Assembly: GCA_000165345.1 (NCBI GenBank)
Contig: CM000436.1
Location: forward strand, 1,152,001-1,216,000
Direction: 5' to 3'
Length of the DNA: 64,000 nucleotides
Positions 44,276 through 63,749 of this stretch are shown in pieces (the stretch's first letter is position 1; every line of letters starts with the position of its first letter). A program made the translations under genes and the position numbers. The notes beneath the pieces are model-generated. The model made no database searches and was not told the DNA's origin. It saw only the letters and a program-made list of their open reading frames with translations.

Positions 44276-46618
44276 ATGAGCCTTGAAAGGGTTAATTCAA
44301 GTATAGAAATGCGAGAAGATAGCCCTACAAGAGATAATACCATCACTCAAGTAGATGTTAGACAGAATTCTGATCTCCTACAAGACTATCCTTCAATGAG
44401 AGTTCCGAGTCTTATAGTATTTGGACAAGGCCAAAGCCAAAATCATACTCAAGGCCATACACATGGATATATTCAAACTAATCAAACTAACCAAGTTACT
44501 CAAATAGGGGAGGGAACTGATCCATCTCTAATAAGAATAGCAAGAGGAGGAACAACAACAACTTCTTCTTCTTCAGGAAATAGTATTGAGAATTTACCAA
44601 ATCCACTTTTAGAAGAAGGAGGACAAAGTTTAATTATAGAAACAACAACATGGTCTAGAGATTCGCATGAACTTTTTGATTATGAAGCACAACATATTAA
44701 TAATAAAAAGTTTCTTGTGAGTAAAAATAGCAAAATCTTTCGACAAAATACAGAATGTATGATTGTTGGTGATGAGGAAGAGCTTCCAACACAAGGAGAC
44801 TATTTATTATCTATAAAAACCACTTCAGATGGGAAATTTGTAGCTTTTCCTGCAGATAGAAGTTTGGGAGCGTGTAGTGAAAGGCAGCTAATTCCTAAGA
44901 AGGTTTGGTTAATTGTTCGAGATCTGCCTAGTAAATCATATGCTTTACAACAAAACGATATGGTTAAGCTAGGAAGATTTAAATTACGTGTTAAACAATT
45001 GGTTAAAAATGAAGATCAAATTCCAGAGCTTAGGCTTGATGAAATGGAAACAAATATTATTGAGCCAACTTTAGAGGAATCTATAACAATGCAATGCAGA
45101 ATTTGTCTCACTGAAGGAGAGCAAGAAGATGATCCTTTGCTTTGTCCATGTCAGTGCAGAGGATCTATTAAGTTTGTTCATTTAGAATGTTTAAGACATT
45201 GGATTAATGGAAGGCTCAATCTGGCCAACGAAAATGGGTCCGGAGATACCTTCTTCTTTAGGCAGTTACAATGTGAGCTTTGTAAGAGTCCTCTTCCTTC
45301 TTCAGCTTCTATTAAAGGCTCTAGAGTCAATATTGTTAAAGTACCTCAAGCTAAACCTCCATTTATTGTTTTGGAGAATATTTATGGGAATGTTCATAGA
45401 GGAGTGCATGTAGTAAGTATGGCTGAAAAGAAGGATTTGAAACTTGGTAGAGGTCATGAATCAGATGTAAGAATTTCTGATGTAAGTATATCTAGATATC
45501 ATGCAACTATTAGATATAGAAATGATAACTTCATGCTTGAAGATCATGATTCCAAATTTGGTACTCTTGTTTCAGTCAGGAGACCACAAGCCATAGATAA
45601 TTGTCATAATTTAGCTCTCCAAGTAGGAAGGACTGTAGTTAATTTGAGACTTTCAGAAGAGCCATGTTCTCCTAGTATTGGTATAAAAGAGTTACCTGTG
45701 AGCAATTCTCCAGATTTCCTTTTAGATCCTGAGCAAAATAATAACCAAAATGGAGGAGCTAGTGGAAATAATGGAAGTGGTAATGGTGGTGTATCTGGAG
45801 TAAACCGAAGATCTAGTGGCTTAAATGCAAACTCGGATGTAAATGGTATGAATCATCAGAATTCTCAAGGTGATTTCCATTGCTTACATAATAAAATGAG
45901 CCAAAATTTAAGATTAGCAGCTCCTGCTACACTTTCCAAAGTAATTGAACATTCTCAGAATATTCCTTCTTTTTTGGATATTCAAGAATCTGACACAAAA
46001 AGTGGCCAAGAAAACGATAATACAAATATTAGAAAAGGAGCTATTCAGAATGTTTCTGAAGATAAATCAACGTTTTTGTCATCTTTGGTTTCCTCTTTAT
46101 CACCACTATCATCAACATCGTCATCTTGTTCATCATCATCATCTTCTTCATCATCTTGTTCATCTCTACTATCTACCTATACTCAACTTTCTACCTCTAC
46201 TATTCCTACTCATTCTCTTGAAGAGATAGCAAATAAAGGAGTAGAAGTTAAAAACAATGGTATTCAATCAATTAATGGGTTAAAACTGGAGAATATTAAT
46301 ATTCAAAATAAGATAGAATTTTTTGGAGATGAAAAAAAGAAGCAATCTGAACAAGATTACTTAGAAATTAAAGAATCAAAAAATAACATCTATAGAAGTG
46401 GAAAATTACTAGTTTCTGAAACCTTTGGTGATGGTGGTTTTGTGGCCCCTCCTTCTAAAGATTCAGATCATTTCTTGGACTGCTCCAAAAATATGAACTC
46501 TCTCATTTACAATAACATTAACCACTGTAAAAGCAACCACAGAATTAGTAACAAGACTTCATTACGGTTACCTTGTTCATCTTTAACATTTTGGATTGAA
46601 AAAAATCAATCAACTTGA
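44276..46618 (+). CDS. RING-CH (MARCH-type C4HC3) zinc finger plus FHA domain protein, a putative E3 ubiquitin ligase; the C-terminal half is Ser/Asn-rich
   Basis: 780-aa ORF with an ATG start. RING-CH: CRICLTEGEQEDDPLLCPCQCRGSIKFVHLECLRHWINGR...CELCKSP. FHA: LKLGRGHESDVRISDVSISRYHATIRYRNDNFMLEDHDSKFGTLV. Poly-Ser tract at 46100..46170. Confidence 0.7.
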   Translation: MSLERVNSSIEMREDSPTRDNTITQVDVRQNSDLLQDYPSMRVPSLIVFGQGQSQNHTQGHTHGYIQTNQTNQVTQIGEGTDPSLIRIARGGTTTTSSSSGNSIENLPNPLLEEGGQSLIIETTTWSRDSHELFDYEAQHINNKKFLVSKNSKIFRQNTECMIVGDEEELPTQGDYLLSIKTTSDGKFVAFPADRSLGACSERQLIPKKVWLIVRDLPSKSYALQQNDMVKLGRFKLRVKQLVKNEDQIPELRLDEMETNIIEPTLEESITMQCRICLTEGEQEDDPLLCPCQCRGSIKFVHLECLRHWINGRLNLANENGSGDTFFFRQLQCELCKSPLPSSASIKGSRVNIVKVPQAKPPFIVLENIYGNVHRGVHVVSMAEKKDLKLGRGHESDVRISDVSISRYHATIRYRNDNFMLEDHDSKFGTLVSVRRPQAIDNCHNLALQVGRTVVNLRLSEEPCSPSIGIKELPVSNSPDFLLDPEQNNNQNGGASGNNGSGNGGVSGVNRRSSGLNANSDVNGMNHQNSQGDFHCLHNKMSQNLRLAAPATLSKVIEHSQNIPSFLDIQESDTKSGQENDNTNIRKGAIQNVSEDKSTFLSSLVSSLSPLSSTSSSCSSSSSSSSSCSSLLSTYTQLSTSTIPTHSLEEIANKGVEVKNNGIQSINGLKLENINIQNKIEFFGDEKKKQSEQDYLEIKESKNNIYRSGKLLVSETFGDGGFVAPPSKDSDHFLDCSKNMNSLIYNNINHCKSNHRISNKTSLRLPCSSLTFWIEKNQST

Positions 46619-48119: not shown

Positions 48120-50408
48120 ATGAGTGAGGATGAGAAAATACAAATTAAATGTTTAACTGAAATATTTAAGAATCCAGTTAAAATAGAATGGAAAAAGTAT
48201 TTAAATGATAAAATAAAACCTGGAGAAGTTATTTTAGATATTTCAGATTTGAATAATGGTCAATTAGTTACAAGAATTAAATCAATATGTCATGGAAAAA
48301 TATCAAGTTGTTTAACTCCAAAAATATGTGAAATCATTTCAGTAATAAAACAAAATAATAATGAACATATTTCAGAATTTGAAATTAAAGATTTAACGAA
48401 TGAAAGTTTTGAGAAATCAATTTTATATATTAAACAAGAAAATCCAAATAGTCATAATAATAGATATTATTTTGGTTATTATTTATGTGATCATACTACA
48501 TTTTTAAGTAATATATGTGTAGAATGCGGATTTATACTCGAAGGAAAAAGTGAATTTTCTAATAATAATAAATCAATTAAAAGAGTTAAAGCTGGAAATA
48601 ACAATAATGAGATAGCAGAAATTGAATCTACTAATATAAGTAGACGTGATCATAAAACAGGTAACTATCATGAAAATGATAGAAATGAAAGAATGTTAAT
48701 AAATGCAGGTTTTCTTTCAAATAATAATGATATTAAATTTAATAAGAATTATGTAGATGAACAAGAAAAATCTTTTATATTTGAACTATTATATATAAAG
48801 AGAAAGTTAAGCTTAGTTTTAGATTTGGATAATACATTAATACATGCATCTTCAACTTTACCAGAAATTAAAAAAAATGATGAATTTATTGAAATTAAAG
48901 AAATTATGGAAAATGAAATTACTGAAGAAATTTATAATAAGTATTATGGTAGTGTTGTAATGCTTGGAAATAAACCACAAAGTAATGAATTACTTCCAAA
49001 AGGAATTGATCATTTTCCTCATTATAATAATGATACAGATTCAAATATTGAAATTTATTTTAAATTATTAGAAAGTTTGATATTTTGTATTCCATTTGGC
49101 AATTCTTTAAATTCTGGAATAGAAAGACAATCTAGAAATAGCTCAAATTGGAGTTTTGGATATTATAAATTAAGACCTGGTGTAATTAATATGTTGAGAA
49201 CTCTTTCTAAAGATAAATATGAAATCTATATGTATACTATGGGAACAGAATATCATGCATATACTTCACTTCGAATTTTGGATCCAGAATTACGTTTTTT
49301 CCATTCAAAGAGAATATTTTATAGAAATAATGGATTTAAAGAGACTTCAATTAAAAGTTTAAATACTTTATTTCCATATGATCATCGTACTTTAGTCATT
49401 TTGGATGATATTGAACAAGCTTGGACTGATATTAATTCATTATTAAAAGTTTATCCATATAATTTTTTTCCAAGTAATTCAATTCCAAATGATTCATCTA
49501 GTTTTTCTAGATATATTTCACAAATTAGAACAAACAATAAATGGAGTCAATTAATAAAAAAGAAAAGAACTAGAAATGATCAAATATCTGAGAATGATTG
49601 TAAAGAAAAGGATGAAATAGATCAAAATAAAATTGATAAAGAAATAACAAAGGAACAATCTTGTATTGATATTATCAAAGAAATCATTAGATCAGAAAAA
49701 GATTATCAGTTATTGATATTCCAAAAGTTATTAATAGCTTTACACGATGCATATTTTAAAGAATTTGATTTAACTTTAAGTAAAAAAGGAGAATTTCATG
49801 ATGAAGATTCATTGGTTTATATAATTTATAGAGATGCACCAAATATTTCCAATATTATTAAGATTATGAGAAGAGGAGTACTTAAAGATTGTAATTTACA
49901 ATTTACTGGTTTCAATAATAAATTCTTTTATAACTTTGTAGATTCAGATTTATATAAATGGTGTAGATATTTTGGTTCAAGTATATTGGATAATAATACA
50001 AAGAATTACTCAGAGAAATTAATTGCTACTCACTGTATATGTGAACAATTATTTACAGAAAAGTATCATCATGCAAAAGAAAAAGGAATTCCATGTATTA
50101 ATATTTTATGGCTTGAAACTATTATTTATACATGGATTAGCCCTTTAAAGATTAATATAAATAATCCATTATTTTGTGATCCTGTTAATTCAGATTATTA
50201 TTCCCCTTTTGAAAGTTTAAATTTGAAAGATAAAGAATCTCCAGACTACTTTGACTTTGATAATTACAGTTATTCCTATCTTTATTCTACAAATACAAGC
50301 GAATCACTTAAGGAACAACTTTGGGAAGAAGCTTTTAACGATATCTCATTTTCTATGGGAGAAGAAGATGATGATGGCGAAGAAGAAGAAGATGATGATG
50401 ATGATTAA
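48120..50408 (+). CDS. FCP1: FCP1-like RNA polymerase II CTD phosphatase (FCP1 homology domain plus BRCT), with an acidic tail
   Basis: 762-aa ORF with an ATG start. The DxDxT catalytic motif is LSLVLDLDNTLIHAS. The phosphatase core is YKLRPGVINMLRTL...YEIYMYTMGTEYHAYTSLRILDP...TLVILDDIEQAW. The BRCT-like region is LQFTGFNNKF...CINILWLETIIYTW. The terminus is EEDDDGEEEEDDDDD. Confidence 0.75.
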   Translation: MSEDEKIQIKCLTEIFKNPVKIEWKKYLNDKIKPGEVILDISDLNNGQLVTRIKSICHGKISSCLTPKICEIISVIKQNNNEHISEFEIKDLTNESFEKSILYIKQENPNSHNNRYYFGYYLCDHTTFLSNICVECGFILEGKSEFSNNNKSIKRVKAGNNNNEIAEIESTNISRRDHKTGNYHENDRNERMLINAGFLSNNNDIKFNKNYVDEQEKSFIFELLYIKRKLSLVLDLDNTLIHASSTLPEIKKNDEFIEIKEIMENEITEEIYNKYYGSVVMLGNKPQSNELLPKGIDHFPHYNNDTDSNIEIYFKLLESLIFCIPFGNSLNSGIERQSRNSSNWSFGYYKLRPGVINMLRTLSKDKYEIYMYTMGTEYHAYTSLRILDPELRFFHSKRIFYRNNGFKETSIKSLNTLFPYDHRTLVILDDIEQAWTDINSLLKVYPYNFFPSNSIPNDSSSFSRYISQIRTNNKWSQLIKKKRTRNDQISENDCKEKDEIDQNKIDKEITKEQSCIDIIKEIIRSEKDYQLLIFQKLLIALHDAYFKEFDLTLSKKGEFHDEDSLVYIIYRDAPNISNIIKIMRRGVLKDCNLQFTGFNNKFFYNFVDSDLYKWCRYFGSSILDNNTKNYSEKLIATHCICEQLFTEKYHHAKEKGIPCINILWLETIIYTWISPLKININNPLFCDPVNSDYYSPFESLNLKDKESPDYFDFDNYSYSYLYSTNTSESLKEQLWEEAFNDISFSMGEEDDDGEEEEDDDDD

Positions 50409-53100: not shown

Positions 53101-54528
53101 ATGTTTATTAAAAGGAATATATTGAGTTTAGCAACATTATTAGTTGGAGCTTCAGCAAGTGGTATATTTAGACAATTTGGTGATAAAATAACCCAACAAG
53201 CAAATCCATGTCATATTACATGTCCAAGAGAATATGCTCCAGTATGTGCAACAGATGCAGAAACTTATGAGAATTTATGTTTATTTGGAGTAGCAAAATG
53301 TATGAATAGAGATCTTCAATTGGTAGCAAATGTAACATGTCCAGATTTATTAATACATTTAACACATTTAGCACAGAAAGGTATGGTAGAAAGTATGAAT
53401 GCAATAGATTCAACATATCAAACATTTGGTAATATAACAAAGGGAACAGCAGAAATGATATCATCTACTTTAGATTCTGTACCATTAATAAAATTACCAA
53501 ACTTTAATCTTCCAATATTTGGAATACCACCAATTCCACCACAAGTTTTGAAAACGACTTCAACTTCAACTTCAACTTCAACTACTACTACTACTACTAC
53601 ATCAACATCAACTTCAACAACTGAAAATACAAGTACAAATTTTGAATCAGATTCTTCATCTGAATCAACATCAGAATACACATCCACATCCACATCCACG
53701 TCATCGACTATTACATCAGATATTGAGCCTACATCTACATCTACATCCACATCTGCATCTACATCTACATCTACATCTACATCTGCTTCTACATCTGCTT
53801 TGCCAACATCTACAACTACCATTGCTACTTCAACAAAATCTTCAAGAAAATTAATAGAGATTCCAAGTTTAGAACAAGGAGCAAGTGGAGTAATAGCACA
53901 GGTAACTAAGACTATACAATCAGCACTAAGTGGATCTGGAGTTAGTGGTTCATCACCAACAACATCATCATCAGCAGCATTGGGATTAAATAATTTGGAT
54001 GATGCAAGAACAACAATTGAGGGTATGGTAAAGACTATTCCATATACGCCAGGAAAGAATTCTAGTAATATATTATTAGTAGATGGAGTTTCACAAATAG
54101 TAAAATTACCAAATGGAAAAGAAAGTAAGAATTTACTTTCAAATATTACATCAACAGAATCATTTAATTTACCCAATATTACAAATTTAACAAATGGTTC
54201 ATTAAGTAATATTACAGAAAAAATTACAAGTAGAAATATTACATTAAATGGTGAAAATTTAATATCTAATCCAAATTTTCAATCTTTGAGAAATTTAACT
54301 TCATCAACATTGGATAATAATAATATTAGTAATACGACTGCTATTAATGGCACAAATAGTGGTTTAAATATTAATGGTACTTCTTTATTAACAGATTCTA
54401 AATTTAATAAATTGGTTAATGGTAGATTTAATACAACTGATATTTTTAAAGGAATTGGAAATACAATAAATAATATTACAAAGAATATTAAGGAGCAAGT
54501 AGAAAATGAAATTGAAAATATTAATTAA
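53101..54528 (+). CDS. secreted Kazal-domain protein with a long Thr/Ser-rich mucin-like region and an N-glycan-rich C-terminus
   Basis: 475-aa ORF with an ATG start. The signal peptide is MFIKRNILSLATLLVGASASG. The Kazal-type module is CPREYAPVCATDAETYENLCLFGVAKCMNRDLQLVANVTC. This is followed by TSTSTSTSTTTTTTTSTSTS...TSTSTSASTSTSTSTSAS repeats encoded by (ACTTCA)n and (ACATCT)n at 53556..53830, then about 20 NxS/T sequons. Confidence 0.7.
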   Translation: MFIKRNILSLATLLVGASASGIFRQFGDKITQQANPCHITCPREYAPVCATDAETYENLCLFGVAKCMNRDLQLVANVTCPDLLIHLTHLAQKGMVESMNAIDSTYQTFGNITKGTAEMISSTLDSVPLIKLPNFNLPIFGIPPIPPQVLKTTSTSTSTSTTTTTTTSTSTSTTENTSTNFESDSSSESTSEYTSTSTSTSSTITSDIEPTSTSTSTSASTSTSTSTSASTSALPTSTTTIATSTKSSRKLIEIPSLEQGASGVIAQVTKTIQSALSGSGVSGSSPTTSSSAALGLNNLDDARTTIEGMVKTIPYTPGKNSSNILLVDGVSQIVKLPNGKESKNLLSNITSTESFNLPNITNLTNGSLSNITEKITSRNITLNGENLISNPNFQSLRNLTSSTLDNNNISNTTAINGTNSGLNINGTSLLTDSKFNKLVNGRFNTTDIFKGIGNTINNITKNIKEQVENEIENIN

Positions 54529-55278: not shown

Positions 55279-56243
55279 TACAAAAATAAGAAAGAAAGGA
55301 AAAAAAAAAAGAAAAGGAAGAAATAGACTAAAGAATACTGAGAAAAGTTCTTTATTGATAAGGAATGGGAGGGAAAGAGAAAAAAAAAGTTAAGTTTTCC
55401 AATATGTTGAAATAATCTTTTTCTCTTATTAACTAAGTAATAAGATTTAAATAAAAAAAAATATATTATAATGAACTCGTATAATTGTTTAATCTAAATA
55501 AATTAATTAAATCTTTTATTGATATATCCCAACTTAAAAGAAATATATAAACTTTCTTAAATATACATCAAATAATATTTGGATATTAACAATAATTGAC
55601 TAGAAGAAAAGCAATTGGTGATTATTTTCTTTTTTCTTTTCCACATCTTTATTTATTATTTATCTTTAATATTAATGAGTATAATGGGGAAAAAAAAGAG
55701 AAATTTACACAAAATATTAAACAAATACAGGAATAGATAAGTTATGATTTCTTAATATTTGAATTATAAAATAAGAATAAATCAATTAATTAAAAACAAT
55801 AATATAACATTATTAACAAACGTTGTAANNNNTNTNTTAATGTTTTTCTATCATATTTATTTATTTTCCTTTTAGAAAATTTATTAATATAAAAAAATAA
55901 TAATAATAATAATAATAATATTAAAAGTTATTAGAAAATAAGTCAAATTTANTTTTGTAAATTTAATTGTATTATTTGTAATATAATTATAACAAAAAAG
56001 TGTTTTTTTTTTTAAATAAATATATTAATAGCATGTACTATTAATTATTACTAATTTATAAAGATTACAATGAGTAATTGTCAAAAATAAAGCATAAAAA
56101 TTAATAAAAATAATAAGCTTTTGTTTATATATATTATTTAAGTTAATTGATACTAAATGAAACTAAAATTTATTTAGAAAAAAAAAGAAGAAAATTCAAT
56201 TTATAAATTATATTCAAATAGTAGATAATAATTAATATTATAT

Positions 56244-56286
<43 letters not shown>

Positions 56287-56304
56287 AAATATTGTATTAA
56301 TTTT

Positions 56305-56331
56305 TTTGGCGGGAAAAGAATTTGCATGCAA
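56305..56331. promoter_or_regulatory. TTTGGCGGGAAAAGAATTTGCATGCAA, a canonical E2F site plus GCATGC, about 190 bp 3' of the NCoR-like gene stop
   Basis: Seen directly. No annotated gene lies downstream within 1.8 kb. See findings. Confidence 0.35.
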
Positions 56332-56519
56332 TAGCCATTTAAATTCCTTACACGTAATAAATAATTAAATAATTTTTTTAAAGTTAAAGGGAAAAGAGTG
56401 GAAAAAAAAAGATTGTTAATAAATATAGTTATTTAGANAGAAAGTTATGAAAAGTTATTAATATAAATAGATAGAAAATGATTAATTCTTTTCTTCGTGT
56501 ATTTATTAATTAAATTTAT

Positions 56520-59500
56520 TCACTCCTTTTTAGGAATTTCTTGATTTAAATTCACATTCTTTAAACTATTATTATTGTTTGTTGGATCTTGAATTGGATT
56601 TCCAATTGTTGTCCCTCCTTTATTTATTCCATTAAAGCCAACTAATGGGTTTCCAATATGTTGTTGAAATTGTTGTTGCTGAAGTTGTTGCTGTTGTTGT
56701 TGTTGTATTATTAAACTCAACATATCTCCTCCAATGGAATTTCTATTTAATTGTTGTCGACTTTGAAAATTAAAAGGGATTGTATTTGCTAGAAACTGTT
56801 GTTGCAGTTGTNGCAATTGCAGTTGTTGTTGCTGCTGTTGCAGTTGTTGTAGTTGTTGAAGTTGTTGTTGTTGTTGTTGTTGTTGCTGTTGTTGTTGTTG
56901 TTGCTGCTGCTGCTGCTGCTGCTGTTGCTTTAACTGTAGCTGCAATTGAAGTTGAAGTTGTAGCTGTTGATTGTGTTGTTGCTGCAGTTGCTGTTGTTGT
57001 TGATGTTGTTGCTGTTGTTGCTGTTGCAATAACTGTTGTTGGAACAAATGTTGAAGTTGGAAAAAGTTAGGAAATGCTTGGGGTTGTGTTTGCAAAGAGG
57101 TTTGTGAAAAAAGTCCATTTCCAACCCCGAATTCATTTCCAACTCCAGCTTCAATTCCAGCTCCAGTTCCAATTCCAGCTCCAGTTACAACTCCAACTCC
57201 ACCACTTCCAGCTCCAGCATCAATTCCAGTTCCAGCTCCTACACCAACTCCAGATCCAACTCCAGCTCCTACGCCAACTCCTACACCAACTCCAGATCCT
57301 GCTCCAGCTCCAGATCCAGCTCCAGCTCCAGCTCCAGCTCCAGCTCCAGCTCCAGCTCCAGCTCCAGCTCCAGCTCCAGCTCCAGCTCCAGCTCCTACTG
57401 AATTCAAAGTTGCAGAATCAAATATTCCTGGAACTATAACACCTTTATTTGAGCTATTTTCTGTTTTTGAATTAAATCCTCCTTCTCCGCCTTCTGAGGC
57501 TCCCATTGTTATTTTACTTGAAATTTCAACAACCTCACATGACTTCTCTCCGTCTACTATCGCTTCCTTAGCTAAAACCATACTCTTACTATTATCGTAA
57601 TCCCCTACTTTAGTAGAATCTCCAACTAATACCTCATTCTTGTCCTCATTCTTCTCCTTCTCTGTCTCTTTCTGCTCTTCTTTTCCATATTGATCATTTA
57701 CTGATATTCCTTCTACTAATCCAGAAACCATCTCTGCTTTCAAATCCGTAATCAGAGTTTCAGATTCAGGTTTGAGCTTAGTTTCAGGTCCAGGTTCAGA
57801 CTCAAGATTGGGTTCAGTTTCAGGATTAAGATCCCGCTCTTTTAACTCTGTAGAATCTTTAGTTGTTGAATTATTTACAGAAGTTGGATTAGGACTTGTA
57901 GTGATACCTGCAGTATAATTACTACCGCCAACAATTCCACCACTTCCCAATAATGTGTTCATTATCATCTGATTTAAAGGATTTGCCAATCCTCCAACAA
58001 ATCCAATCTGTTGAGAATTTCTCATTTGTTCTTGTAATGTTTGCTGAAAAACCAACTGTTGTTGTAAGTATTGATTCATTAATATACTATTCCAAGTCTG
58101 ATTGTGATTGCTCTGGGAATTAATATTTGTTGAATCACTTGTACTATTATTAACACTGCTTGTTGTATTAACACCATTATTCACAGGATTTATAGATATG
58201 GGATTCTCTGTTGCTCCTACTGCTCCTGATACCGATCCTGATTCTCCTATTCCTGTTCCTCCCACTCCTCCTGCTACATTATGCTGTCCAAGATTAGACC
58301 CCAAGCCTCCAAATAATAATCCAGAAGGATACCCCACTCCTGTTGCTCCTGTTGCTCCTGTTGCTCCTGTTGCTGCTCCTACTCCTACCCCTGCTCCTCC
58401 TACTCCTGTTACTCCCATTCCTATCCCTCCTCCTCCTCCTAATCCCAACCCTCCTATACCAGGAATTCCCCCCTTAGCCATTCCAGGTATACCAGATATG
58501 CCTCCTATACGAGGTATTCCTCCTAAATTTTGTAGTCCTCCCATACTTTGTAGTCCACCCAAACCCTGAAATCCTCCTATACCTTGTAGTCCTCCAAGCC
58601 CTGACAAATCTTGAATGCCATTACCGCTCCCACTACAACTATTACTACTGCTACTGTTATTAATATCATTACCACCACTTCCTCCTACATCACCAACAGC
58701 ATTTTCCACTCCCATTCCAGAATAAATACCTGTATTTGATACTTGGCAAGGCTTTAATGGATTCACTTGAGATGTAACATTTCCACATGAATTAATAATT
58801 GATGGAAAACCACCTGATAAAATTGGTATAGAATTATCATTAACTTTAGGTAATTGTAATCCAAAATTTACGTTACCCATATTCATATTTAATAATGAAT
58901 TTGGCTGTAATTGACTTAGTCCAGGAATTGAATTATCTGAAATAAAGTAGTTTGCTAGAATTCCATTATTATTTAATAATAGTAAGTTATTAATATTATT
59001 GGATGATGATGATGTTTCTATTTTACCATTTAATACTTTATTATTACTATTTCCTTTCATATACTCATCCATCAATTTTGGTATCTTTCTATTCATACTC
59101 TCTTCATTATATTCATTTAAACCAATATTATTACCATTTCCACTACTCATTAGTATATCATTACTGTTCGTATCACTAACTTCCTTGCTATTTAACAATC
59201 CTACTACTCCTGTTACACCTGATCCTGGCCCTGATCCTGGCCCTGATCCTGATCCTGACCCTGATCCTGACCCTCTCTTACGTCTTCCTTGCCTTGGCTT
59301 CTCATTCATTGATGATTTTTGTAATACCGAATTACTATTTATATTATTAACTATTTCCAAATTTCTTAATTTACCTTTACCTGTCTCTGTTGATGGAACA
59401 TTTGAGACATAATTTGAAATATCTGAAGATAATGAATAATCTTGCTTATTTGATGGAGATATTGTCAAAGAATGTAATAAAGAATTACTACCATTTATAA

Positions 59501-62500
59501 CTCCTCCTAATTCTCCCATTATATTATCCATAAACTGATTCAAATATAAATATACCGATACCTTTAAATCATTTATTGATATATTTGGATCCAAATATGA
59601 CATATTCAAAGATTCTTGATCTTTATATTCTTTATGATCAAATATTATTGGTATATTACTTGGTAATTGTATATTTGAATTTCCTTGCTTATTTTGAATA
59701 TTTATATTATAAAAAGGAGAAATTAATGCATCCATATCTTTTGGTAATATATATCCATTACTTAAGTTATCCATTGTATATCTTTTATTTGTATTTAAAT
59801 GAGAATCATCATGTTTTCTAAATAAAAACTTATATATTAAATCATCATATAATCCCCATTCTTCTTTCTTTTCTATTCCTATCATATTATTATTCATTTC
59901 TCTTCTTTCAATTATTGGAAGCCTAAATAATGTTGATGGTCTATTTAACATTCTTCTTAAAGATGATCTTGAAAGAAGTCTCTCTGTATACATATTCATA
60001 TTACCAAGACTACTAAAACATGATCTCTTATAAAAATCTCTCATAAAATGATTATATGTTGATTCAATTGTTAAAGTATTCAATATTTCATCAATTAAAA
60101 GCTCCCTATATGAATGTTTCTTATATTTAATAATCTCCATACATCTTATAGTACTAATAAGACTATTCCAAAATATACTCTTATCTTTTTTTATTTGTAT
60201 ATTATCATCATCTTGAGAATCTTTAATAATTCTTTGAATATTTTCTTCTGTATCATCTTTTGTATGAATTGAAGATGATATTATTTCATCATCATTCATT
60301 ATATTATGATCTTTTTGATCATAATGATGATTCATATTAATTTGATTCTTATTATGATTTCCTTTAAAATAATATACTAATCTTAAAATCCTTTTAAATC
60401 CTAATGTATATTTATATTTGTAATAAAAATCTATACAATCTTTAATAGTCTTATATTCCATAAATGATGCTATCCTTCTGAAATCTTTTGGATACATTAA
60501 ATACTTTTCTATAAACATTCTTATTTCTGAATAAGTCCATATAGTATTTCTATTCCTTTCTTGATCAGTTGGATTGATTACTTGATTATTCTTATTAATA
60601 TAAATAAATTTCACAGGTTTAATAGGATCTTGATCATAAACATTAAATTCAATTTCTGCAGGAAATCTAAAAATACTATTCTCAAACCATAGTGGAGATG
60701 GACCTATAAAACTGGATGATGAACTAGTCATTTGCATCCATTCTCTTTGAGCTTGTTTTTGATGTACTATTCCTTTTTCTCTTTCTCTATTTTTTTGTAT
60801 ATTCAATCCAATATCTTTTTCTTTATCTTTTTCTTTATTAGAAATAGGTATTTCTTTATAATTTTTAGTTACCCCGATACCTAATGTTGTAGTACCAGAA
60901 GAACCAAATGATAAAGAATTACAACTATTAGAATGAGAAGGATTAGATTGTGATGTAGAAGTGATATTATTTCCTGTTAAAATATTTCCAATTGATGGTT
61001 GAGAATCATTTTTCATAACTGATGCAAATTCATTAGAATAATTTGTAGATCCAGGTACCCCTCCAGTTTTAACCAAATTAAGAAATGATAAAGATGCATT
61101 GCCTGTATTTGATGACATAGAATGATCTTCATTTCCAATAATATTATTGGAAGAATGATAATTATCATTAGAATTTCTTGTCCTTCTTGATCTTGTAGAA
61201 TTTAATTCAAAGGTACCGACATCAATTCCTCCAGTTCCTCTTTTTCTTCTTGTATTACTAACAGTATTAAGTGTTTCATTTGTTGAATTAGAGATATTAT
61301 TTATATCATGAGTATTCCGATTAATACTTTCAGAATGATTTTGTTCAATATTTCCAATATGATCACTTCCTTTTAATATACCTCCTTTTGTTTGAATATT
61401 ATATAACTTTTGATTATTATTAGTATTAGTAGAATCAATATTATCACCAAATACAAGAGCTCTATTAGAATTAGTAAAAAGTATTGGTGTTTGAATATTT
61501 TGTAAAGACATCATATAAGTTTTTGATATATCATTATTTCTACATTCAGGTAGAAGATCTAGAAATTTATGATATACTTTAAACCTAAAATCATGTTTAA
61601 AATAACCAATAGGTAAAGGTACCAATTGATCAGGATGATCAATTGCTCTTAAAGGTAAACAACCCCAAGTAAAATTCAGATCTCTTTCACTATTTAACAT
61701 TTCATTATATGCAACATATCTTTTATAACGATGATATATAAAATGTAAAGATCTTTTAATATTTGATATTTCATTTCTAATCATGATCTTTTTTCTTTTA
61801 ATATGTTTTCTTACTCTTTGAATTTTTGAAGAATAACCAAGTAAATTAATAGGATGATAAAAATCACCATTAATTGGTCTTAAAATATCTTTAATAACTT
61901 TTAAAGCAAACTTATTATGATCTTGTATTGGATAACAAAGACTAGTATAGTATGGCATTAAAGATACATATTCTGGTATACCAAGTATAACTTCAATATA
62001 ATCTTGTATTTCTCTATCAATAACTAAATCATCCTGATAGATTTTAATAATTTCAAGAGTATGATCATCTTTACTTTCTTCTAAAATAGATTCTAATAAC
62101 TTAATTTCATCCATTAAATAGTTAAATGTTGATATAAGAAATGGAATATGATCACCAGTATTTTTTTGATGATTATCGATAGTAATGATCTCATTAATTT
62201 TATCCTTTAAAACTTTTAAAGAATTTAATTTCTCAATATTTTCTTCTTTGAGTTTTTGTAAAGATTCTGTAATTCCAAAATCATTATTAATATGAGAAGA
62301 AGAATTAGAATCTTGAGAATTTTTATTTTCATTAATAAATCGTATTCGGTACCTTTTTAGATCTTTATTATTTGTATCAATTTCACTATTAATAAATTGA
62401 TCCAACTCTTTAATTCTACCAGGCAAAACACAAATCTTAACTTTTTGTCTTGCAGTTCTAAAAGCCTGACTTGTATTTTCCATAACTGAAGCCAAGTAAT

Positions 62501-63749
62501 TATAATTATGATCATTTTCTTCTAAATTATTATTAATTTCAGAGTTTCCCGCCTTTTCTGTAAAGAATGAGCAAGAATCTGAAATATTGTTAGAATTAGA
62601 AGAATCAATATAAAGATTTTCGAATGCCGTATTGGTATGTTCATCTTCAACTTTTTTTAGTGTGAGATTAGATAGATTGAAATCTGGAGTTAGAAATTCA
62701 ATAGCTCCTAGTAGTCCTTGTTTGTAATTAATAGACTTTTTGTGATTATAATCAGTAAGTCCAGCACAAGATGATGATTCATAAGAGGTACCTAAAGTAA
62801 TTTGAGAAGTTTCTTGAGATCTTTTAACAAGATTAACTTGATAAATATGATATATTTTACATAAATCATTCAAGAATTGACCATTTTCTCCATAAGTTGA
62901 GCTATTAACTGAATTAATCTTTTTAATGTTTCTAATATTTCCCAAGCTTAAATTTAAGTATGGACCTCTTCTATGATCTTGTGCTATTGGTAGTTGTTGT
63001 AAATTGTAATTCTCCAGTTCTCTACCTCCTTTATCATATAAATCTTTCAAGTAATATTTACAAGCTAAAGTAAAAATATCCAAAGGAGTTCTTGATCTTA
63101 ATATCTTTTCTGTTTCATCTATCTCAGTCTTTTCCTTGGAGCTAGTGTTCTTCCTTCTAAAGTATCTTCTATGAGTTTTCTTCTTTTTTGTGTTTATAGC
63201 TTTCAAATCTTTTGTAGAAGAGGAGCATGAATTATTAATATTACTATTGTTATTAGTTGCATTTAAACCAGAACTTGAGCCTAAATTAGCTCCTGAATCA
63301 AAATCTAGAGCCTCACATATCTCTTCTCCTTCTCCATCATCTAAATCATCATCCATAATAGAAGTTGTTAAACAATTTTCATTAAAGTTAATACTATTTG
63401 CCTCGATATTTCTTCTTTCTTGTTCCTTTTTTAATTGTTCCAACTCTAAATTAATTCTCAGTATCTCATCCTGAAGGTATAATACTAAATTATGATCCTT
63501 TAAAATATTTACATTACCAAAAATCATCTTATCTTGAATCTTCTCTTCATCTATTATTGGCTCATATAGAAATTCATCCTTGAATAAATTATCTTTCAAT
63601 CCTCCACCTTCACTAAAATCAGAAACTTGCTTCAAATATTTATCCACTAATTTCTCAAATTCATCAGCTTCCTTAACATTTTTAACTTTTCTACATCCAT
63701 TAATTATGCTTCCCAGCAAAATCTCGTTATATTCAGTTTCTTTATCCAT
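56520..63749 (-). CDS. NCoR/SMRT-like SANT-domain transcriptional co-repressor (2409 aa) with extreme low-complexity expansion
   Basis: ATG at 63749. The SANT domain with its preceding block ([30 protein letters not shown]...[43 protein letters not shown]) is collinear with NCoR1 (LSVIPPMMFDAEQRRVKFINMNGL...WTDHEKEIFKDKFIQHPKNFGLIASYLERKSVPDCVLYYY). It has an N-terminal coiled coil ([18 protein letters not shown]). The upstream block [49 protein letters not shown] matches the NCoR region KVYHENIKTNQVMRKKLILFFKRRNHARKQREQKICQRYDQL. The C-terminal third is poly-Q, (GA)n, GGLQ/GGIPG Gly-rich and PD/PG repeats. One N at 56812 gives an X. Confidence 0.7.
   Translation of the reverse strand: [2409 protein letters not shown]
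57131..57397. repeat. imperfect to perfect (GCTCCA)n hexamer array (perfect core about 57313..57396, at least 13 copies) encoding the (GA)n/(GS)/(GV) dipeptide run of the NCoR-like protein; adjacent (CAA/CAG)n poly-Q tract at 56795..57050
   Basis: Seen directly. Mirror ORFs 56780..57070+, 57074..57439+ and 58108..58569+ are artefacts of these repeats. Confidence 0.85.

Follow-up and report, generated by a model that had tools for sequence, protein, structure and literature searches.

Within the 64,000-nucleotide stretch examined here (contig CM000436.1 of GenBank assembly GCA_000165345.1, positions 1,152,001 to 1,216,000 of the forward strand; hereafter the window), which is AT-rich with a GC content of 22-35%, the open reading frame (ORF) listing contains one uninterrupted, single-exon frame of very large size:

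56520..63749, minus strand: ORF of 2409 amino acids (aa)

This ORF is the Cryptosporidium parvum gene cgd8_4840 (cpbgf_8004840), because the published primers of the typing marker cgd8_4840_6355 (MM19) match exactly inside it. Its product is probably the Cryptosporidium orthologue of an apicomplexan and chromerid protein that belongs, as a divergent member, to the NCoR/SMRT/Snt1 co-repressor family, carrying a deacetylase activation domain (DAD) predicted to bind and activate a class I histone deacetylase (HDAC). In a 2025 review, the gene was listed among 16 C. parvum Myb-domain proteins, with neither a subfamily nor a suggested role (PMC12246861); here it is assigned to the DAD-bearing NCoR/SMRT/Snt1 family.

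The assignment is centred on a single conserved region of the protein, comprising two nested features:

60384..60644, minus strand (aa 1036-1122): DAD-type SANT, i.e., SANT1 with its N-terminal extension, recognized by phmmer, by profile comparison and by residue conservation
60375..60800, minus strand (aa 984-1125): block F, consisting of a KNREREKxIVHQKQAQREWMQ helix, a Ser run and the DAD

By sequence comparison, residues from about 1036 to 1122 are homologous to the NCoR/SMRT DAD. In a single-sequence phmmer search of the PDB, the top match was 4a69_C, the SMRT DAD of the HDAC3 complex (E 4.6e-9), with query residues 1036-1115 aligned to residues 12-90 of the 94-residue chain and the similarity reaching about 35 residues upstream of the SANT helices. 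A profile was then built from six aligned Cryptosporidium sequences (C. parvum, C. canis, C. felis, a further species, C. muris and C. serpentis), and it retrieved the SMRT DAD with an E of 1.9e-14 (57 bits). In the ranking obtained with this profile, 4A69 was followed by SMRT 1XC5 and NCoR1 2EQR, and then by CoREST3 (35 bits), MIDEAS (30) and MTA (23), such that the NCoR/SMRT chains lead CoREST3 by 22 bits. A previous annotation made from the letters of the window alone (the sequence-only reading) had described a giant NCoR/SMRT-like SANT co-repressor. The SANT similarity on which it depended proved significant in both searches and specific for the NCoR/SMRT type, including the DAD extension and the inositol-phosphate tyrosines considered below.

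The same region has so far been read as a Myb domain, and the protein could accordingly be a Myb-type, sequence-specific DNA-binding transcription factor. Its sole significant Pfam match is indeed a single SANT/Myb domain (Myb_DNA-binding, aa 1071-1113, E 6e-7), and orthologues are entered in databases as 'MYB domain-containing protein' or Myb-like DNA-binding protein. Nevertheless, this identity is highly improbable: only a single repeat was found, not the tandem repeats of DNA-binding Mybs, and the similarity takes in some 35 residues of the DAD-specific segment that precede the SANT. In addition, the significant matches among solved structures are all SANT domains of HDAC co-repressors (SMRT, NCoR, CoREST, MIDEAS, MTA and RERE), which account for the best 14 PDB profile matches, while the first DNA-binding Myb appears at an E of 0.008.

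A wider search led to the same family. When the profile of aa 984-1410 was compared with 1.84 billion representative proteins, 446 matches were obtained at E<=1e-10, in the order Cryptosporidium, other apicomplexans and Vitrella, and then plant, fungal and animal proteins that include named NCoR1 and NCoR2; the NCoR2 of Polypterus was recovered at an E of 1e-15. Since about 105 of the top non-apicomplexan matches carry an NCoR-type N-terminal region, the nearest relatives outside the Apicomplexa belong to the NCoR/Snt1 family and not to another SANT class. This bears directly on the possibility of an ELM2-SANT class co-repressor of HDAC1/2 (MTA, CoREST, MIER, MIDEAS or RERE), for which it can be said that the SANT domains of CoREST3, MIDEAS, CoREST1, MTA and RERE are significant profile matches (E 1e-7 to 1e-3). 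Yet such a class assignment is very improbable as well, given that no ELM2 was detected in Pfam scans of the six Cryptosporidium sequences, that the NCoR/SMRT chains are ahead by at least 22 bits, that the sequence preceding the SANT can be aligned with the DAD extension, and that the closest non-apicomplexan relatives have the NCoR N-terminal region. Block F as a whole has a mean column identity of 79% among Cryptosporidium species, and its N-terminal part is common to coccidian orthologues (profile positions 4-150). As a side observation, the Pfam family PF25826 (DUF7952) starts at SANT1 of NCoR-like proteins and is above threshold in several non-apicomplexan matches; it spans about 100 residues in Eimeria and Cyclospora, and covers the SANT part only in Cryptosporidium. 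DUF7952 appears to be a family built on SANT1 and the downstream region of NCoR-like proteins.

Residue conservation provides a further line of evidence. The SMRT DAD contacts inositol tetraphosphate through K449, Y470, Y471, K474 and K475. With the SMRT numbering verified on the 4A69 chain of 94 residues (389-480 plus 2), four of these five residues were found to be conserved: the equivalents of K449, Y470, Y471 and K474 are K1088, Y1109, Y1110 and K1113, invariant in all apicomplexan orthologues aligned and as far as Vitrella. In SMRT, the Y470A and Y471A substitutions each abolish the response to inositol phosphate (PMC3710971).

Beyond Cryptosporidium, orthologues were found in Eimeria, Neospora (XP_003880006.1; 4252 aa), Cyclospora, Babesia, Theileria, the gregarine Selenidium and the chromerid Vitrella, and the one of T. 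orientalis is already annotated 'SMRT'. These apicomplexan and chromerid proteins share with cgd8_4840 the DAD, block E and part of block G (described below), and in coccidia also the KNREREK..QREWMQ helix; in contrast, only Cryptosporidium has the Gly/Gln tail and blocks B and H. No protein of Plasmodium-like composition occurred among the best 150 matches, which does not in itself prove absence from that genus. Several database names deserve comment. The Babesia microti orthologue is named 'phosphatidylinositol glycan, class T' and that of Babesia sp. Xinjiang 'Calcium/calmodulin-dependent protein kinase type 1D', names that likely reflect mis-annotation or fused gene models. A word-indexed homologue search returned C. 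canis as its top match (51% identity), and neither the protein of C. parvum itself nor close relatives such as that of C. hominis, even though three C. parvum assemblies containing the gene are indexed. Furthermore, a protein of 43% identity that lacks a GA repeat is labelled 'large with 2 MYB domains plus low complexity GA repeat and Q repeat', a label probably carried over from C. parvum.

Upstream of the DAD, the Cryptosporidium orthologues are collinear from the first Met, with conserved blocks set between fast-evolving linkers:

63405..63488, minus strand (aa 88-115): block A, LQDEILRINLELEQLKKEQERR, a short amphipathic helix or coiled coil that all six Cryptosporidium sequences retain
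63051..63203, minus strand (aa 183-233): block B, the basic motif KKKKxHRRYFRRKN...RSRTPLD..KYY, with invariant columns and confined to Cryptosporidium in jackhmmer searches
62412..62510, minus strand (aa 414-446): block D, NYNYLASVMEN...ARQKV, present in Cryptosporidium and weakly in piroplasms
61455..62132, minus strand (aa 540-765): block E, the largest conserved region, with the motif FTWGCLPLRAIDHPDQxVPLPIGY
61605..61820, minus strand (aa 644-715): basic helix QRVRKHIKRKKIMIRNEISNIKRSLHFIYHRYKRYVAYNE within block E, aligning to NCoR2 KKLILYFKRRNHARKQWEQKFCQRYDQLMEAWEKK in the repression domain 1 (RD1) region

Block A covers 3.5 heptads, with V89, L92, I96, I99, L103 and L106 at the a/d positions. 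A jackhmmer search started from aa 405-770 showed block E to be common to Babesia, Theileria, Neospora, Eimeria, Cyclospora, Selenidium and Vitrella. Within it, the stretch FTWGCLPLRAIDHPDQxVPLPIGYFKHxFRFKxYHKFLxLLP (especially aa 690-735) is near-invariant in Cryptosporidium and is conserved in those genera too. For the motif WGCLPLRAIDHPDQ..VPLPIGY no counterpart was found in Pfam, the PDB or NCoR, and blocks D to E gave no meaningful match in a PDB profile search.

The sequence-only reading had described an N-terminal coiled coil, a KRRN...QRY block and the SANT domain as collinear with NCoR1. In the real NCoR2 sequence, the order is coiled coil, IIYDENRKKAEEAHR, LPLYNQP, KRRNHARK..CQRYDQL and DAD. 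The strings KRRN and QRY are NCoR's own and are absent from the Cryptosporidium protein, which does possess a similar block at aa 644-715; block D resembles NCoR IIYDENRKKAEEAHR by eye only. Alignment of the Cryptosporidium N-terminus with an NCoR N-terminal profile (hhalign) yielded two segments in the same order as in NCoR, namely the coil at aa 89-110 (P 0.03-0.08) and aa 615-690 (P 0.026). With a pan-apicomplexan profile, aa 644-715 matched NCoR2 KKLILYFKRRNHARKQWEQKFCQRYDQLMEAWEKK at a P of 8.6e-4, and restriction to match columns gave a P of 3.2e-4, a probability of 39% and a score of 33.0. By comparison, the reversed template scored 16.9, the reversed query 16.0, and 150 column shuffles 14.7 at most, none of them (0/150) reaching 33.0. 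A first column-shuffle control had produced three outliers in 100, one of them at 251; these were attributed to gap-rich columns and disappeared with match-column shuffling. The similarity of this helix to the NCoR KRRN..QRY block is hence suggestive.

Against these points, several observations weigh on the other side of the NCoR/SMRT assignment. At the level of the DAD, SMRT K475 is replaced by Y1114, and the position is occupied by Tyr, Phe or His across apicomplexan orthologues. AlphaFold2 models of the DAD block and block G, computed from six-sequence alignments, reached a predicted local distance difference test score (pLDDT) of 42 and are unusable as structural confirmation. Regarding the N-terminus, the coil scored 19.1 (P 0.03) in hhalign against the GPS2-binding coil of NCoR2 and 20.1 against the reversed template, a similarity that is generic to coiled coils. 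The corresponding N-terminal coil of SMRT, residues 167-207, binds GPS2 (PMC3315023), and the Pfam family GPS2_interact was not detected in the six Cryptosporidium sequences at E<=1. A jackhmmer search from the NCoR2 N-terminus collected about 105 eukaryotic NCoR-like proteins, none of them apicomplexan; conversely, searches from the Cryptosporidium blocks remained confined to Apicomplexa and Vitrella and did not reach NCoR. The TBL1-binding motif of RD1, A-x-x-A/L-H-R/K-x-Phi (PMC3315023), was found nowhere in the whole protein in strict or relaxed form, block D having A433-R434-Q-K-V437 where the motif has A-H-R-I-L. The whole protein likewise contains no match to the CoRNR box pattern [LI]xx[IVH]Ixxx[LIF]. 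A second SANT, or histone-interaction domain (HID), was not found, as Pfam identified one Myb/SANT stretch per protein in the six Cryptosporidium proteins. Finally, no published experiment or interactome was found that links cgd8_4840 or its orthologues to an HDAC.

Altogether, the collinearity with NCoR (coil, basic helix, DAD) is partly supported: the DAD strongly and one helix in a suggestive manner, whereas the coil, which did no better than its reversed control, is unsupported. As a check, the sequence-only reading had proposed hidden Markov model searches for the SANT and for the GPS2/TBL1-binding region; the Pfam scans returned one SANT and no GPS2_interact, and the pattern search returned no TBL1 motif. 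Because the second SANT, the TBL1 motif and the CoRNR boxes went undetected, the cgd8_4840 protein is best described as a stripped-down, lineage-modified NCoR/SMRT relative and not as a canonical NCoR/SMRT.

The fate of the second SANT can be followed in the C-terminal half, where two conserved blocks were considered:

59520..60182, minus strand (aa 1190-1410): block G, located after the DAD, partly common to coccidia and piroplasms and not recognizable as a second SANT
58029..58094, minus strand (aa 1886-1907): block H, WNSILMNQYLQQQLVFQQTLQEQ, kept in all Cryptosporidium species inside an otherwise fast-evolving, unalignable tail

Block G has no PDB profile match, and its interpretation as a degenerate SANT2 was rejected after hhalign comparison with a SANT profile (P 0.15-0.17). 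Block H, proposed as a SANT2 remnant from the spacing in C. muris, was rejected in the same way, being not SANT2-like (with SANT profiles, blocks G and H gave P values of 0.13-0.32); a role as a helix that binds a partner is possible for block H. A SANT hidden Markov model run with filters off also found one domain only in the Cryptosporidium protein, compared with the '2 MYB domains' stated in the product name of C. parvum. Near their C-termini, five Babesia/Theileria orthologues and one of Selenidium clearly have a second SANT, and none was seen in Cryptosporidium, coccidia or Vitrella. Because the Babesia, Theileria and Selenidium proteins keep this domain, the ancestral apicomplexan protein probably had the two-SANT layout of NCoR, with the second SANT lost or changed beyond recognition in Cryptosporidium, coccidia and Vitrella.

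These negative results allow a different account, in which the protein descends from an NCoR/Snt1 ancestor and has ceased to activate HDAC3. Its SANT would then bind histone tails or serve a different chromatin complex, and the function would reside in the apicomplexan-specific blocks. This would fit the fact that SANT2, TBL1 motif, GPS2 coil and CoRNR boxes all went undetected, and the fact that block E (WGCLPLRAIDHPDQ..VPLPIGY), the largest conserved module, has no NCoR counterpart. It would also fit the portions available of the Toxoplasma HDAC3 partner lists, in which MORC, ApiAP2 factors and hypothetical proteins are given and no large SANT protein is among those listed. In the available part of the AP2XI-2 interactome supplement, only an unrelated 888-aa Myb protein is among the matches listed. 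Absence from such partially seen lists is weak evidence, however, and the SMRT residues in contact with inositol phosphate and HDAC3 show no variation from Cryptosporidium through to Vitrella, a pattern difficult to account for unless ligand and partner are the same. A loss of the activating function is therefore considered rather unlikely, and an HDAC-activating member of the NCoR/SMRT/Snt1 family remains the preferred identity of cgd8_4840. The HDAC3-complex scaffold advanced by the sequence-only reading holds in the sense that the DAD homology is best read as that of a scaffold for a class I HDAC, and from it we infer the binding itself.

Animal HDAC3 is inactive without the NCoR/SMRT DAD and inositol phosphate. 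By analogy, the DAD of cgd8_4840 would bind and activate the parasite class I (HDAC3-type) deacetylase, and an inositol phosphate would be wedged between the two, contacted by K1088, Y1109, Y1110 and K1113. The conserved N-terminal blocks, including the helix resembling the KRRN..QRY segment of RD1, may assemble further core subunits, while the Gly/Gln-rich tail of about 1000 aa could act as a fast-evolving, disordered platform recruiting factors. The (GGAGCT)n tract in that tail would change length through replication slippage. C. parvum encodes an HDAC3, cgd8_480 (PMC12246861; PMC2715132), and HDAC3 is a central regulator of apicomplexan stage conversion as well as a drug target (PMC2715132). 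The assignment of cgd8_4840 to the DAD-bearing NCoR/SMRT/Snt1 family thereby offers a concrete hypothesis for the recruitment and activation of the Cryptosporidium deacetylase, and names the residues to be mutated (Y1109, Y1110, K1088 and K1113).

A bolder extension can be formulated, although it is speculative and on balance unlikely. Apicomplexans and chromerids might run a re-engineered NCoR-type module, in which the DAD and its inositol-phosphate pocket are kept and the TBL1/GPS2 interface (together with SANT2 in Cryptosporidium and coccidia) is replaced by lineage-specific blocks docking parasite partners such as MORC or ApiAP2 factors. The candidate replacement modules would be block E (WGCLPLRAIDHPDQ-VPLPIGY) and, in Cryptosporidium, blocks B and H. 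If true, cgd8_4840 would be the missing activator of apicomplexan HDAC3, and the switching-on of this validated drug target would be explained. Part of the background is already known: the gene is catalogued, the family is pan-eukaryotic, one orthologue carries the SMRT label, and the function is so far deduced from sequence. No paper was found describing a parasite-encoded NCoR/SMRT-like DAD protein.

The integrity of so large and repetitive an ORF was assessed by comparison with other assemblies. A draft-assembly artefact or a fused gene model could in principle produce both the giant size and the repeats, and the window does contain ten ambiguous bases (46774, 55829-55836, 55952, 56438 and 56812), eight of which lie within the intergenic interval 55829-56438 beside the 3' end of cgd8_4840. 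One falls inside the gene, at 56812 in the Q/L tract, giving a CNA codon and residue X2313. Nonetheless, cgd8_4840 is intact in all three NCBI chromosome-level assemblies compared (2408, 2405 and 2409 aa), with 99.7-99.8% DNA identity to the window over 10.9 kb, and collinearity with the orthologues of five other Cryptosporidium species extends over the full length, M1 to C-terminus. At the protein level, the window differs from these assemblies by two GA units, one GS unit and one Q only, in addition to three A/S substitutions within the GA tract and a single Y/C substitution. One of the assemblies, GCA_035232765.1, is the telomere-to-telomere (T2T) assembly of C. parvum IOWA II (PMC12179316), and its gene matches the window protein in length and sequence except that X is replaced by Q. 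X2313 is Gln in all three assemblies, and in the T2T sequence position 56812 is a T on the plus strand (codon CAA). The four ambiguous positions with matchable context, 56812 included, each correspond to a single base in the T2T assembly; the ambiguous bases of the window are low-quality base calls and not gaps. The neighbouring Kazal-domain gene is identical in the three assemblies, and cgd8_4840 adjoins it there too. An assembly artefact, which has next to no probability, was rejected on the ground that the same intact ORF is present throughout. The 2409-aa frame predicted from the window is thus real and stays open once the ambiguous base is resolved as Gln, while the suspicion that this base marks a mis-assembled repeat length was not borne out, as the window and T2T proteins are otherwise the same and the base is a single T.

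The C-terminal half of the protein is dominated by low-complexity sequence:

56790..57068, minus strand (aa 2228-2320): Q/L-rich tract with 64 Q in 93 residues, a longest pure run of Q22 and mixed CAA/CAG codons, holding the ambiguous base at 56812
57150..57401, minus strand (aa 2117-2200): (G-x)n tract of 84 aa, including a pure (GA)13 from (GGAGCT)n, the variable-number tandem repeat (VNTR) marker MM19 / cgd8_4840_6355
58200..58607, minus strand (aa 1715-1850): region rich in Gly, containing hexapeptide repeats of the GLGGLQ type, GGIPG and (GAT)3-4
59217..59273, minus strand (aa 1493-1511): GSGSGSGSGSGPGSGPGSG tract, whose plus-strand reading gives a PD/DPGP repeat

By a SEG-like entropy filter, 29% of residues are of low complexity (50% within aa 1421-2409, against 14% within aa 1-1420), and strict homopolymers (>=4) with dipeptide repeats (>=3 units) make up 5.7% of the protein; the earlier estimate of about 40% homopolymer or dipeptide repeat was therefore too high. 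The long Q-rich stretch, the (GA)n and the GGLQ and GGIPG motifs it had pointed out are all present, the last two three times and once, respectively, in the Gly-rich region (about aa 1715-1850). Two other repeats it had named belong to the opposite strand. The DPGP/PD repeat results from reading the plus-strand sequence CCTGATCCTGAC at 59218-59274, which on the coding strand encodes GSGSGSGSGSGPGSGPGSG. The threefold VAP comes from a 153-aa Pro-rich ORF at 58108..58569 on the plus strand, antisense to the Gly-rich coding region; this ORF is a side effect of the GGN/GCN codons used on the opposite strand, with no evidence of a gene. Across Cryptosporidium species, the Gly-rich, GA and poly-Q tracts do not permit detailed alignment. 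Most of the aligned species again have a Q-rich C-terminus, C. muris being the least clear case.

The (GA)n tract of cgd8_4840 is the established VNTR typing marker MM19. Tandem Repeats Finder reports it at 57138-57395 with a period of 6 and 42.5 copies, and both published MM19 primers match the window with no mismatches at 57412-57434 (minus strand) and 57266-57283 (plus strand), flanking (GA)n. MM19 is a polymorphic marker in multilocus VNTR analysis (MLVA) of C. parvum, with a Hunter-Gaston discriminatory index (HGDI) of 0.71 (PMC9043402), and among the assemblies the (G-x)n tract varies by up to two GA units and one GS unit. The comparison of repeat lengths among isolates, suggested by the sequence-only reading, is thus already routine. 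In the typing literature examined, MM19 is presented as a length marker only and the protein is not discussed; on the assignment made here, a widely used typing repeat would be part of the disordered tail of a chromatin regulator.

According to public gene calls, the surroundings of cgd8_4840 include a protein with FHA and RINGv domains (44276-46618), a NIF-domain phosphatase (48120-50408), a TFIID-31kDa/TAF9-like protein, the Kazal-domain protein (53101-54528) and a Sad1/UNC protein upstream of cgd8_4840. None of these neighbours has an obvious functional link to it.

Comparison with known systems places cgd8_4840 closest to NCoR1/SMRT (PDB 4A69, 1XC5 and 2EQR). Both have a DAD-type SANT with an N-terminal extension and the K449/Y470/Y471/K474 equivalents, cgd8_4840 has a weakly similar basic helix upstream of the DAD in the same order as the KRRN..QRY segment, and both are very large and mostly disordered, as described for SMRT RD1 (PMC3315023). 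In contrast to NCoR1/SMRT, SANT2/HID, GPS2_interact, the TBL1 motif and the CoRNR boxes were undetected in cgd8_4840, K475 is changed to Tyr, about 600 extra residues and apicomplexan-specific blocks lie between coil and DAD, and the C-terminal half consists of Gly/Gln low complexity where NCoR1/SMRT has its nuclear-receptor interaction domains. MORC is a GHKL ATPase. The sequence-only reading had likened the protein to Toxoplasma TgCRC230, which was reported with TgHDAC3 and TBL1 in co-repressor preparations (PMC2877743). This analogy fails, since the factor is 'MORC (TGGT1_305340, formerly CRC230)' (PMC7494830) and not a SANT scaffold; the two are not homologues, and no ATPase or CW domain was found in the Pfam scan of cgd8_4840. 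The VNTR marker MM19 / cgd8_4840_6355, known from strain typing, corresponds to its (GGAGCT)n tract. Fungal Snt1 (Set3C) and plant POWERDRESS are non-metazoan NCoR-family scaffolds. Like cgd8_4840, they represent NCoR-type SANT scaffolds in organisms without nuclear receptors, and fungal and fern NCoR-type proteins that carry the NCoR N-terminal region were among the top profile matches. Proteins of the Snt1/POWERDRESS type retain both SANT domains, and jackhmmer links their N-terminal region to NCoR2; the Cryptosporidium protein differs from them on both counts.

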